DNA of 64,000 nucleotides from Candidatus Pacearchaeota archaeon (GTDB lineage Archaea > Nanobdellota > Nanobdellia > Pacearchaeales > GW2011-AR1). The stretch spans positions 693,364-757,363 of the forward strand of contig JBAZXH010000001.1 in assembly GCA_041659945.1 (NCBI GenBank). The letters are read 5' to 3'. The position numbers were made by a program, and so were the translations under genes. Positions 3,897-21,564 of this stretch are shown one piece after another. Positions within the stretch are counted from its first letter, which is position 1; each line of letters begins with the position of its first letter. Below the pieces are notes generated by a model. It was given only the letters and a program-made list of their open reading frames with translations, ran no database searches and was not told the DNA's origin.

Positions 3897-4103
3897 ATGC
3901 ACATACTCCAACCAAAACACCTAAAAATTAGTAAAAAAGAAGAAGAGGATTTACTTAGTAAAATTAATATTTCTAGAACACAATTACCGAAGATAAAAAG
4001 CACAGATCTTGCTTTACCTGAGGGCGTTAATATTGGAGACTTGATAAAAATTGAAAGAAAAGAGGGCGATAAGACATTTACTTATTACAGAGTTATAGTA
4101 TAG
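3897..4103 (+). CDS. rpoH: DNA-directed RNA polymerase subunit H (Rpo5)
   Basis: 68 aa with QLPKIKSTD...GDLIKIERK...YYRVIV, immediately upstream of rpoB (2-nt gap). Confidence 0.85.
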   Translation: MHILQPKHLKISKKEEEDLLSKINISRTQLPKIKSTDLALPEGVNIGDLIKIERKEGDKTFTYYRVIV

Positions 4104-4104
4104 A

Positions 4105-7100
4105 ATGGAAGACGGTTTAAAACTTAAATTGGGAAATAATGAACATTTGATTATTCGTAAATATCTTTCTGATAATTCTCTGGTTGAATCAAATTTAACG
4201 TCGTTTAATAATTTTATTGAAAAAAGAATGCAAGAAATTGTTAATGAAATATCTGATAATATTGAGAATGATGATATTGAAATAAAACTTGGAAAGATAA
4301 GAATTGATAAACCTAATGTTATTGAATCTGATGGTGCAACAAATTTATTAACTCCTGCTGAAGCAAGACTTAGAAATCTAACATATTCTGCTCCAGTATT
4401 CTTAGAAATTTCTATAAAACAAGATGGAGGACAAATCGAAACTCAAGAGGTGGAAATAGGAAGAATTCCAATTATGGTTAGGAGTAAGGCATGTAATATC
4501 TATAATATGTCTAAGGAAGAATTGGAAACTGTTTATATGGATCCAGCTGATTTTGGAGGTTATTTTATTGTTAATGGTAATGAAAGAATTATGATTATGA
4601 CTGAGGATCTTGCAGCTAATCAGCCATTTATCGAAGAGAATTCAAAGGATAAGCTTATGTTAAGATTATTTTCAGCAAGAGGAGCTTATAGAATTCCAGT
4701 TACTATTGTTGAATCTAATGAAGGTATTTTGGAGATTTCTTTTAGTAGGTTTAAGAATATTCCTGCAGTTGTTTTGCTGAAAGCTTTAGGTTTGTTAAAG
4801 GAAGCTGATATTGCAAAGTATATTGGTAAGGAAACAGATAGTGTAATTGTTAATCTTTATGAATTTGCAAAGATTGCTTCAAGTGAAGAAGCAATGATGT
4901 TAATTGCAGAAAAAACAAGTCTTCAGGGAACAAAAAAAGAAATTCTTGATAGAATAAAACAAAGACTTGATTCTTATTTGTTGCCGCATATTGGAATAAA
5001 AAGAGAAGCAAGACTTGACAAGGCAATAACAATATGTAAACTAATAAAACAATATTTAATCTTTAAAGAAAATAAAGAATTAAAAACAGATAAAGATCAT
5101 TATGCTAATAAGAGAGTACGTTTATCTGGAGACTTGCTATCTGATTTGTTTAGGGTTAATTTGAATATTTTTGTAAGAGATATTAAATATTCTCTTCAAA
5201 AAACAATTAAGAGAAAGAAATTTTACAGCTTGAAAACAATTGCTAAATCTACTTTGTTTTCTCATAGAATAAAATCAGCTATTGCTACTGGAAGTTGGAC
5301 TGGTGAAAAGAAGGGAGTAACTCAGAATATGGATAAAACTAATTATCTGTCTATACTTTCACAGTTGCAAAAAGTTTCAAGCAGTCTTTCAGAAGAACAA
5401 ACAAATTTTCTTGCTAGAACTTTACATCCAACACATTTTGGAAGATTTTGTCCGGTAGAAACTCCAGAAGGAACTGAAATTGGTTTAAGAAAAAACTTGG
5501 CTTTAATGGCTAGAATTTCCACTAGACTTCTTATAGAGGAAGATGAATTAAAATCAACTCTTGAAAAAATGGGTCTTGATAAGGGTTATGGAAGATTTGA
5601 TGTTTTCTTTAATGGTATTTTTATAGGAGGGATTGATGACCCTCATGAATTTGTTAGAACCTTAAGAGATTTGAGAAGACAGCAGAAATTACCTGGAGAG
5701 TTGAGTGTTAGATTTAATAAGGATGTTGGAATTGTTGCTATTTTTGGAGATACTGGTAGAGTTTTGAGACCTTTGATAATTGTTGACAATGGCATTCCTA
5801 GACTTAGTGAACAACATATGGAAATGCTTGCTCGTGATGAATTAAAGTGGGGAGATTTAATTAAGAGTGGGATTATTGAATATATTGATGCATCTGAAGA
5901 AGAGAATTGTTTTGTTGCGCTTAACAAAGAAGAGGTAACTCATGAACATACTCATCTTGAAATTGATACCATTGCTTTTTTGGGACCAATAACAAGTATT
6001 GTAAGTTTTGGAAACCATGATCAGTCATCAAGATTAATTAGAGGAAGTAAAACTCAAAAGCAGGGATTGGGATTGTATGCTGCAAATTATTTATGTAGAG
6101 TTGATACCGATGTAAGTATTCTACACTATCCACAAAGACCAATAGTTAGAAGTTTTGTTTATGATGCATTGAATGTTTATCCATGCGGACAAAATGTAGT
6201 AGTTGCAGTTATGACCTATGAAGGTTATAATATGGAAGATGCTCTTGTTGTTAATAGATCAAGTATTGATAGAGGTTTTGGTAGAAGTACTTTTTTTAGA
6301 CCCTATACTTCAGTTGAATTGAACTATGCTGGAGGTTTGAATGATGAAATTTTAATACCTACAAAAGACGTTTCAGGTTATAGAACTGAAGAATCTTATA
6401 AGTATTTAGAAGATGATGGTATTGTTTATCCTGAAGCTAACCTTGGTTCTGGAGAAGTTGTTATTGGTAAAGTTTCTCCTCCAAAATTCCTTTCAGAAGC
6501 TAAGGATATTAGTATTAAATCAAAAAAAGAAAATAGTTCGGTTATTCGACAGGAAGAAAAAGGTATTGTTGATGCTGTGTTTATTACTCTTGACGAAGAA
6601 GGAAATAAGATTGTTCAGGTTAGAACTAGAGACCCTAGAAATCCTGAACTTGGAGATAAATTTTCAACTGCACACGGTCAGAAGGGAGTTATTGGTGCAA
6701 TAGTTCCTGAAGAAGATATTCCATTTACTTCGAGAGGAGTTAGACCTGATTTGATTTTTAATCCTCATGGTATCCCAGGAAGAATGACTGTAGGATATTT
6801 GCTTGAATTAATAACTGGAAAGATTGGTTGCTTAAGAGGTAAGATTATGGATGGAACTTCATTTGAAAAAAGAGATGTTCCAGCTTTGGAAACTCAACTT
6901 GAAGAATTAGGTTTTAGATTTGATGGAAAAGAAACAATGTATAATCCGATTAGCGGAAAAATGATGGATGCAAAGATTTACATTGGAAATATGTATTACT
7001 TGAAATTGAAGTATATGGTAAGTAATAAGATGCATGCAAGAGCATCTGGAAAAGTTGCTTTGCTTACAAGACAACCAATTGAAGGAAGAGCAAGAGGTGG

Positions 7101-20059: not shown

Positions 20060-21346
20060 ATGGCAAGAGAAAAAATAAACTTTAACATCGTGTTTGTAGG
20101 GCATGTTGATGCAGGAAAATCAACAACTATTGGTAGACTTATGTACGACTGTGGAAAGTTGCCTGAACAGGAATTAAAGAAATTAAAAGAAGAAGCTCAA
20201 AAACACGGGAAGGCTGGATTTGAATTTGCTTATGTTATGGATAAATTCAAGGAAGAAAGAGAAAGAGGCGTAACTATTGATCTTTCATATCAAAAATTAA
20301 TAACTCAAAAGTTTGAAGTAACAATTATTGATGCTCCAGGACACAAAGACTTTATCAAGAATATGATTACTGGTGCAAGTCAGGCTGATGCAGCTTTCTT
20401 AGTTGTTGCAGCTAAATCTGGTGTTGAACCACAAACAAAAGAACATCTTTGGTTATTGAAGACTATGGGAGTTGGTCAAATTGCAGTTTTAATTAATAAG
20501 ATGGATGATGTTGGTTACAAAGAAGAAAGGTTTAACCAAGTTAAGACTGATGTTACTAATGAACTTAGAATGGTTGGTTACAAACCTGATGGCATTACAT
20601 TCCTAGCTATTTCAGGATTAATGGGAGATAATGTTTTTAAGAAATCTGATAAGATGTCTTGGTATAAAGGACCAACTGTAATGGAACAATTAGACTTGTT
20701 TAGTGCTCCTGAAAAACCTACAGGCTTACCATTAAGAATGCCTGTTCAAGATGTTTATGAAATTACTGGTATTGGAACTGTTCCAGTTGGAAAAATTGAA
20801 ACAGGAATAATGAAAGTTGGACATAAAATCATAGTATTACCTGGAAGAAGTGGAAAGGGAATTCCAGGAGAAGTAAGATCAATTGAAATGCACCACGAAC
20901 AATTGCCTGAAGCAATGTGTGGAGATAATGTTGGAATTAATATTAGAGGAATTGGAAAGAAAGATATTGCAAGAGGAGATGTAATCTGTGATGCAGCTCA
21001 ACCAGCAACAATTGCTGAAGAATTTGTTGCTAAAATTGCAGTTATAAATCACCCAACTGTAATTGCTAAGGGTTATACACCAGTATTCCATGTTCATACA
21101 GCTCAAGTTCCGTGTCAATTTATCGAACTAATTGAGAAATATGATCCAAAGACTGGAGCAGTAATGCAGGCAAATCCAGACTTTTTGAAGAATGGAGATG
21201 TTGCAAAAGTAAGAATAAAGCCAATTGGAAACCTTGTAATTGAAAAGCAAGAAGTTAACCCACATATGGCTAGATTTGCAATTAGAGACGCAGGAGCAAC
21301 AGTTGCTGCTGGAATGTGTACAGATCTTGTTGCAAAGAAACTTTAG
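20060..21346 (+). CDS. tuf: translation elongation factor 1-alpha (aEF-1A)
   Basis: [21 protein letters not shown] GTPase motifs. 428 aa. Confidence 0.95.
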
Positions 21347-21399
21347 TTGAAGATAGGGTGTTTTTCTGAAAATTTAAATTAGCTAGAAAAGAAATTAAA

Positions 21400-21564
21400 A
21401 TGAACGATAAATATGAAACTAGACAAGAAAATGGTGAAGTAGATAGCGGAACAAGTAATCCTTACTGTCCTGTTTCTAATGGTAACCCTGCTTTTTTAGC
21501 TCTTATGGGAAGTAGAACTCACTTAGATCAATTGGTTGAGGAACTTAATTTAAGGAATAAATAA
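21400..21564 (+). CDS. small hypothetical ORF (54 aa) where rps10 usually follows tuf
   Basis: Hand-translated MNDKYETRQENGEVDSGTSNPYCPVSNGNPAFLALMGSRTHLDQLVEELNLRNK. Not S10-like. Confidence 0.3.
   Translation: MNDKYETRQENGEVDSGTSNPYCPVSNGNPAFLALMGSRTHLDQLVEELNLRNK

Follow-up and report, generated by a model that had tools for sequence, protein, structure and literature searches.

Why should a string of genes for RNA polymerase, ribosomal proteins and elongation factors keep its order and at the same time hold unfamiliar open reading frames (ORFs) at its junctions? The question is raised by a 64,000-nucleotide (nt) stretch of DNA from a Candidatus Pacearchaeota archaeon (contig JBAZXH010000001.1, positions 693,364 to 757,363 of the forward strand; hereafter the window), in which the string rpoH-rpoB-rpoA-nusA-S12-S7-EF-2-EF-1alpha starts at position 3897. 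The host, a DPANN-type archaeon whose relatives have genomes of 0.5–1.3 Mb, is represented by a 1.04-Mb genome (G000; 33% GC, four contigs, 87% complete), and the window lies within its contig C1. As the initial annotation of this locus had reported, the order of the recognizable genes is kept, all of the ORFs that it named are present, five junctions hold ORFs, and the packing is tight, with gaps of 1–6 nt and one ATGA overlap. We consider the best explanation, with a probability of about 0.7, to be a conserved backbone whose gene boundaries are subject to dense gene flux and fast divergence; on that reading, the pattern is ordinary gene flux, unusually dense.

Probable gene flux at the junctions of the string

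The region was compared with that of 20 relatives, and individual slots were added from further congeners, the comparison of the genus extending over 10–17 congeners. Within the genus, the interval between rpoB and rpoA was filled in 4 of 10 cases, that between rpoA and nusA in 1 of 10, nusA–S12 in 6 of 10, S7–EF-2 in 8 of 8 and EF-2–EF-1alpha in 6 of 6. The S12–S7 slot was filled in 11 of the 17 genus loci (other small ORFs occupied it in 10 of 16 congener loci), and the slot between EF-1alpha and a TPR-like gene in 14 of 16. A single junction could measure 1–10 nt in one species and 0.5–3 kb in another while its flanks remained collinear. With the exception of rpoH–rpoB, each junction was tight in some species and contained 1–8 mostly unrelated ORFs in others, and an all-against-all comparison of the loci left 220 singletons among the called ORFs. 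The larger inserts were ordinary genes, namely those for CTP synthase, a secretin-domain protein, NYN, receiver-domain and NT5C proteins, and a hydrolase. The repeated gene capture offered earlier as one interpretation was hence supported, both by the different and mostly unrelated genes found per congener and by a 667-residue ligase gene of the window that was not found in 40 relatives. Two properties of a hotspot were thus observed: the same junction varied in content between collinear flanks (20 loci and the extra slots), and the ligase gene, not found in the 40 relatives, indicated true gain. As a side observation, the secretin-domain protein (451–478 amino acids [aa]; PF00263, E 3e-21) occupies the nusA–S12 junction of three congeners (L005:6888-8243 in G006, L007 and L008) beside a small ORF with a weak OmpH-like match; a secretin is odd for an archaeon.

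The same pattern of insertion was observed throughout the genome. When the host was compared with the 857-kb main contig of the congener G004, 642 of the 1215 called host genes had any match, leaving 47% without a detectable homologue, and the median identity of the orthologues was 61%. At least one non-orthologous ORF interrupted 94 of the 284 collinear orthologue junctions on the host side (33%) and 86 on the G004 side (30%). The collinear backbone extends from 3897 to about 51500 of the window, in which 30 of the 78 genes are shared with G004. Other informational clusters were punctured as well. In the L7Ae-S28e-L24e cluster (L001, G000:C2:2898-6170), ORFs of 62 and 158 aa occupy the two junctions; the former is Cys-rich and the latter has no family match. 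In the spc operon (L104, G000:C1:130100-134600), S14 and S8 are separated by an ORF of 117 aa, and L19e and L18 by one of 122 aa; the gaps are of 1–7 nt, and neither ORF has a Pfam family or a homologue in G004. The packing is therefore a genome-wide pattern that includes both clusters, and the proposal that it is special to the string was not supported. Overall, the earlier interpretation is supported as regards repeated capture, and not as regards L30e and S10 replacement or string-specific packing. These figures quantify turnover in a tiny archaeon: about half of the genes are not recognizably shared and a third of the collinear junctions are interrupted, and foreign or orphan ORFs in tight coupling are tolerated even within the spc and L7Ae operons.

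The fillers of the window differ in kind. The TGA stop codon of rpoA (10873–10875) overlaps the ATG of o88 (10872–11138, plus strand; 88 aa), which ends 6 nt before the gene for a NusA-like KH protein (11145–11561, plus; Pfam KH_5 and KH_2; 65–77% identity to congeners). Between S12 (11627–12049, plus; PF00164, E 2e-39) and S7 (12230–12886, plus; PF00177, E 3e-34) lies o58 (12051–12227, plus; 58 aa), 1 nt after the former and 2 nt before the latter. S7 and elongation factor 2 (EF-2; 15528–17717, plus; 62–88% identity to congeners, with EF-G domains on record for the identical contig L101) are separated by two minus-strand genes, one encoding the 667-aa AMP-binding acyl-CoA-ligase-like enzyme (AMP-ligase; 12956–14959; PF00501, E 2e-42) and the other, upstream of it, being o95 (15032–15319; 95 aa). 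Since the AMP-ligase belongs to a well-defined family and was not found in the 40 relatives, it is a clear gain, and we regard it as a captured gene. Neither o58 nor o95 was found in these relatives; o58 also had no relative in metagenome or viral scans and was not retrieved by a hidden Markov model (HMM) of the S12–S7 slot built without it, and o95 matched itself alone among 5.8 billion proteins.

The interval between EF-2 and elongation factor 1alpha (EF-1alpha, tuf; 20060–21346, plus; 77–85% identity to congeners) contains o114 (17749–18093, plus), o105, o85 and a gene for a RelA/SpoT-like nucleotidyltransferase-fold protein (18813–20015, minus; PF04607, E 2e-5, below the cut-off). The three to four genes counted in the initial annotation are thus present, except that o105 and o85 (18127–18720, plus) share one frame with a single TAA at 18442–18444 and are one split gene, an uninterrupted 204-aa ORF of the sister species G006 (L005:14624-15238) covering both. 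In G001, G003, G004 and G007, the corresponding interval likewise holds a homologue of o114 (in G007 a fragmented one), and none was found in 150 other genera of the family. Its AF2 model is a helical bundle (pLDDT 77) for which Foldseek retrieved no match in the PDB with E<=0.001. The RelA/SpoT-like gene has no homologue in G004 and is probably a captured ordinary gene; its ORF has a TTG start only about 10 nt after a TATA-like TTTATAAA, and the real start may be an ATG 20 codons downstream. Directly after tuf lies o54 (21400–21564, plus; 54 aa). ORFs of 44–92 aa follow tuf in 14 of 16 congeners and look unrelated by BLAST; once aligned, they display a core motif, Y-C-x-V-x-N-x-NP-x-[FM], and a leave-one-out HMM built without o54 ranked it first of 4795 host ORFs (E 0.76). 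We read o54 as a putative positional orthologue that has diverged almost beyond detection.

We propose that the string belongs to a backbone of conserved gene order, and that the small DPANN archaeon that carries it comes from a lineage with a very fast turnover of accessory and orphan genes. If insertions survive only at gene boundaries, the backbone order would therefore be kept and the junctions would become sites of recurrent gain, loss and divergence. The fillers would be genuine protein-coding genes from several sources. The AMP-ligase and, probably, the RelA/SpoT-like gene would be ordinary genes that were captured; o54, behind tuf, and o114, behind EF-2, would be specific to the genus, each keeping to its slot and diverging until it can hardly be recognized; o88 would belong to a rare family of small genes that turns up in different junctions; and o58 and o95 would be singletons. 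Their tight packing, with an ATGA overlap and gaps of 1–2 nt, makes it probable that the fillers share transcripts with their neighbours and are coupled to them in translation. Spread between relatives would likely proceed by homologous recombination in the conserved flanks.

A comparable situation is known from Escherichia coli, in which integration and indel hotspots between fixed pairs of core genes are spread by recombination in the flanks, and most of the sites lack an integrase or a tRNA, so that such marks are not required (Touchon et al. 2009, PMC2617782). Both systems display recurrent gain and loss between fixed neighbours, with differing contents and a preserved order. They differ in that the present comparison is between species of a DPANN genus (61% median identity) and not between strains; in the far greater density, a third of the collinear junctions being interrupted; in the inserts, which are often single ORFs of 50–120 aa with 1–7-nt gaps in informational operons; and in that the signal here stems in part from positional orthologues that have diverged extremely, rather than from transfer. 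By this analogy, the pattern would be the archaeal, small-genome counterpart of the hotspots between E. coli core-gene pairs.

Several observations weigh against gene flux as the full explanation. The filling of five of the eight string junctions was not significantly above the genome rate of 33% (p = 0.086), and it clearly exceeded that of the spc cluster, where 2 of 28 were filled (Fisher p = 0.003); a local peculiarity of the string relative to the genome is possible. No insertion is marked by flanking repeats above chance, an integrase or a tRNA fragment, and a viral or defence origin of the fillers was rejected because PHROG, PADLOC and IMG/VR gave no matches. Because the median identity to G004 orthologues is so low, part of the class without homologues may reflect divergence and not gain or loss, as in the example of o54, and for small ORFs the two are not always separable. 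Finally, a shared N-terminus and weak similarity among some of the slot ORFs hint at a relationship that is unexpected under random flux.

Possible accessory factors and a shared N-terminal motif

These last similarities bear on the competing explanation that survives best, namely that the transcription or translation machinery has accessory subunits or regulators peculiar to this lineage, encoded by some of the junction ORFs, which would evolve fast and be kept in these operons for co-expression. As candidates we consider the ORF of o54 type that follows tuf, those of the S12–S7 slot and the o88 family, and what speaks for them is only their position. The small ORF directly after tuf recurs in most congeners with its core motif; the filled S12–S7 slots include homologous subsets (z 6–9) with a shifted similarity; three of the four DNA contexts known for the o88 family lie in the string, two of them between rpoA and nusA and one upstream of tuf; and the ATGA overlap and 1–2-nt gaps imply co-expression. 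However, the slots are empty in many congeners, that between rpoA and nusA being an empty gap of 7 nt in the sister species G006. Of 400 genomes searched in the order, a single one matched the o88 profile, and then weakly; for o58, no relative was detected, the other slot ORFs included. Orphan ORFs packed just as tightly are present throughout the genome, and no structural or family link leads from these ORFs to a known factor. Overall, we consider this explanation doubtful.

The family of o88 is small. An exhaustive phmmer search of 1.8 billion representatives yielded four relatives of 77–94 aa with 37–54% identity, and the alignment has 17 invariant columns. One homologue occupies the same rpoA–nusA slot in L024, another congener-level contig, with none in the other examined loci; another lies divergently upstream of tuf in L025; and one relative is located elsewhere, near the genes for eRF1 and a tRNA synthetase. 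The weak match in the order (E 9e-6 per genome) was to a 71-aa ORF of G289, which itself had subthreshold winged helix-turn-helix (wHTH) matches only; no Pfam profile, wHTH or other, matched any of the five family members, apart from one chance row far below threshold, that of P0004 to Importin_rep (E 0.019; 15 bits, the cut-off being 33). A word-index search with o88 returned the query alone, and its alignment gained no sequences beyond its five rows. Wider relatives of o88, o58 and o95 were sought by scans of genome and metagenome contigs, which found none, in the ESM Atlas, which gave chance-level rows below 0.9, and by a PDB sequence search, which was empty. The AF2 model of o88, built on the five sequences, is of low confidence (pLDDT 60) and places helices at residues 2–17 and 19–31 and strands at 43–46 and 66–69. 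A programmed -1 frameshift in the A-rich stretch ahead of the rpoA stop codon, by which o88 and rpoA would be fused, was rejected, since the homologue in L024 stands in a different frame relation to rpoA, with a 1-nt gap after a TAA.

Several ORFs of the S12–S7 slot, together with the o88 family and a handful of further small ORFs, have an N-terminal motif in common, M-x(0-3)-H-[ILV]-x-x-[LIM]-[STC], with K-x-[VI]-E frequently behind it. Of the called ORFs of the host genome, 5 of the 228 with less than 100 aa carried the motif and none of the 987 of greater length; among 2599 uncalled ORFs it occurred once, the mean for residue shuffles being 0.45; the pattern was, it should be noted, defined after the data had been seen. 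Similarity exceeded that of the controls within the S12–S7 slot (Mann–Whitney p 4e-4) and between the slot and the o88 family (p 0.025), the pairs not being independent and o58 having no significant partner. A conserved DNA element as the source of the shared N-terminus was rejected, since the ORFs have different DNA upstream of them and encode the peptide with varying synonymous codons, which places the pattern at the peptide level. Starts of the type MKH[IL] or MNRHV were also observed in other ORFs of 68–88 aa (G000:C1:15374-15613, 365423-365680 and 561292-561498; G004:C1:30907-31173); several of these continue into Gly-rich hydrophobic stretches, and all lie in regions without congener homologues.

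We treat the motif as a lead only, one drawn from sequence comparison. It raises the prospect, which we consider doubtful, that a class of fast-evolving proteins of about 50–100 aa with a shared N-terminus preferentially colonizes the junctions of the string in this genus (S12–S7, rpoA–nusA and upstream of tuf), either as exchangeable partners of the expression machinery or as selfish hitch-hikers that benefit from being coupled in translation to genes of high expression. If this were true, o88 and o58 would be two diverged members of the class only 1.2 kb apart; and should the small ORFs with the motif turn out to form a single family bound to the string, RNA polymerase or the ribosome might have new small partners among them, or they might represent an operon parasite of a new kind.

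Coding character of the junction ORFs

Profile searches bore out the earlier remark that the inserted ORFs are unrecognizable: o88, o58, o95, o54, o114, o105 and o85 had no credible Pfam or NCBIfam family at E<=1, the rows obtained being chance matches far below threshold (o58 to Remorin_N, E 0.06; o114 to EpsF, E 0.04). No paralogue of a junction ORF was found inside the host genome. Structured RNA or tRNA as the content of the slots was ruled out, as neither Rfam families nor a tRNA (ARAGORN) was found in the slots between 3897 and 22228.

The lack of family matches, and of a significant sequence relative for o58, o95 and o54, would also be expected if the small ORFs were spurious, being no more than frames that happen to stay open in ordinary spacers. 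We consider this very unlikely on the strength of the coding signal. At the base composition of the host, the chance of an open frame is 6e-4 for 88 codons, 8e-3 for 58 and 1e-2 for 54, the range across these ORF lengths being 4e-4 to 1e-2. A fourth-order three-periodic Markov model, trained on 445 host ORFs of at least 250 aa, gave the junction ORFs scores of 0.13–0.25 per codon in their own frame (o88, 0.20; o58, 0.25; o95, 0.18) and negative scores in the other five frames, the same pattern as for rpoH, S12, S7 and the elongation factors; as a control, an ORF that merely overlies a tRNA-Lys gene scored negative. The GC content of the ORFs (0.31–0.39) is distinct from that of true spacers (0.15–0.25), and o88 and o114 have conserved homologues. 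Genome-wide, the median coding score is equal for genes with and without a G004 homologue, and the coding density of 0.90 with all calls would fall to 0.57 if only the genes shared with G004 were retained. The junction ORFs hence look like real protein genes by their sequence properties.

Three contigs from other samples are 100% identical to the window across the region, the locus being present unchanged in ERZ27249449, SRR6484324 and SRR18595301. The arrangement is therefore not an assembly artefact; for the same reason, the contigs offer no polymorphism from which selection (pN/pS) could be measured. An SD-like (Shine-Dalgarno) 4-mer precedes only 23% of the long genes, which makes this signal unusable as support for translation.

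The L30e and S10 positions and the rest of the string

The canonical archaeal str/L30e cluster has the arrangements rpoA-L30e-nusA and tuf-S10 (PMC10833476). The present string agrees with it in the order of its recognizable genes, and differs in that L30e is missing, S10 is relocated with a TPR-like gene in its place after tuf, rpoA is fused, and five of the eight junctions are filled. The host genome has one gene of the L7Ae family, which is L7Ae itself (TIGR03677) in the L7Ae-S28e-L24e cluster. The L30e model recovered that gene alone in the host and a single matching gene in 19 of 20 congeners; the remaining genome, G009, gave two weak matches, neither on its S12-bearing contig. By this search, L30e was not found in the host or in any of the 20 congeners. 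A second and diverged gene of the L30e type is present in several other families of the order, in some of them beside S12. Loss of L30e is known in whole archaeal lineages (bioRxiv 10.1101/2021.01.31.429008); the present case resembles these in that this surface protein was not found in the host or in 20 of 20 congeners, and differs in that it concerns a DPANN family, other families of the same order keeping a diverged L30e-like gene next to S12. The search for S10 elsewhere in the genome was successful: the gene is intact at G000:C2:17396-17704 (129 bits to TIGR01046), beside a serS-like gene, and in G004 it occupies the equivalent place. It is still near tuf in other families of the order. 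The loss of L30e would thus be placed in the ancestor of the host family, and the move of S10 next to the serS-like gene in the ancestor of the genus.

As the initial annotation had remarked, o88 bears no resemblance to L30e: it did not match PF01248 or NF002172 at E<=1, nor did it or its relatives score with an order-specific HMM that was built from nine L30e-like proteins of other families and that does recover L7Ae in the host and in G004. The slot between rpoA and nusA measures 7–75 nt and holds no ORF in 7 of 9 congener loci, and is an AT-rich spacer in the other 2. The same annotation had placed o88 in the L30e slot and had o54 replace S10; the positions were confirmed, and replacement was not supported. 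Because L30e was not found in any genome of the genus, the rpoA–nusA slot is mostly empty and S10 is intact elsewhere, there is no true replacement, and neither protein, as judged from the sequences, is replaced by the ORF now in its slot. That o88 is an extremely diverged L30e and o54 a remnant of S10, as their canonical positions and the L30e-like length of o88 might suggest, is largely refuted and has next to no chance of being correct, given the empty slots and negative profiles, a low-confidence o88 model with two N-terminal helices and a hairpin in place of an alpha/beta sandwich, and an o54 of 54 aa that matches neither PF00338 nor TIGR01046, for which a match of about 100 aa would be expected. 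For annotation, an unknown ORF in a canonical slot of a DPANN genome is thus not evidence of a replaced ribosomal protein.

The remaining members of the string are conventional. It begins with rpoH (3897–4103, plus), which carries the Rpb5 C-terminal domain (PF01191, E 1e-15) and is 72% identical to its G004 orthologue. The unsplit rpoB (4105–7386, plus; 1093 aa) is 76–87% identical to that of congeners, and Rpb2 domains 1–7 are on record for the identical contig L101. The rpoA gene (7453–10875, plus; 1140 aa) is a fusion of A' (NF006336, 1056 bits, residues 2–809) and A'' (TIGR02389, residues 802–1123). Beyond o54 lies the TPR-like gene (21635–22228, plus; 197 aa), which has weak TPR hits only and is genus-wide, with orthologues in 15 other congeners of 16 examined.

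Some minor observations concern these genes. The window EF-2 has no intein; that of G007 (L008:12774-15557), a 927-aa ORF, carries one after about residue 44 (Pfam Intein_splicing, E 3e-20). The spacer between rpoB and rpoA (7387–7452; 66 nt) is GC-rich for this genome and could form short hairpins (TCCCT...AGGGA); a look-up of its sequence for a mobile tRNA-intron module gave no match, and the junction ranges from 1 to 700 nt in length across congeners. The rpoB gene is unsplit in the host family, and two genes take its place in another family of the order (L017 in G038, L023 in G026); rpoA is fused in every rpoA-bearing locus that we examined.

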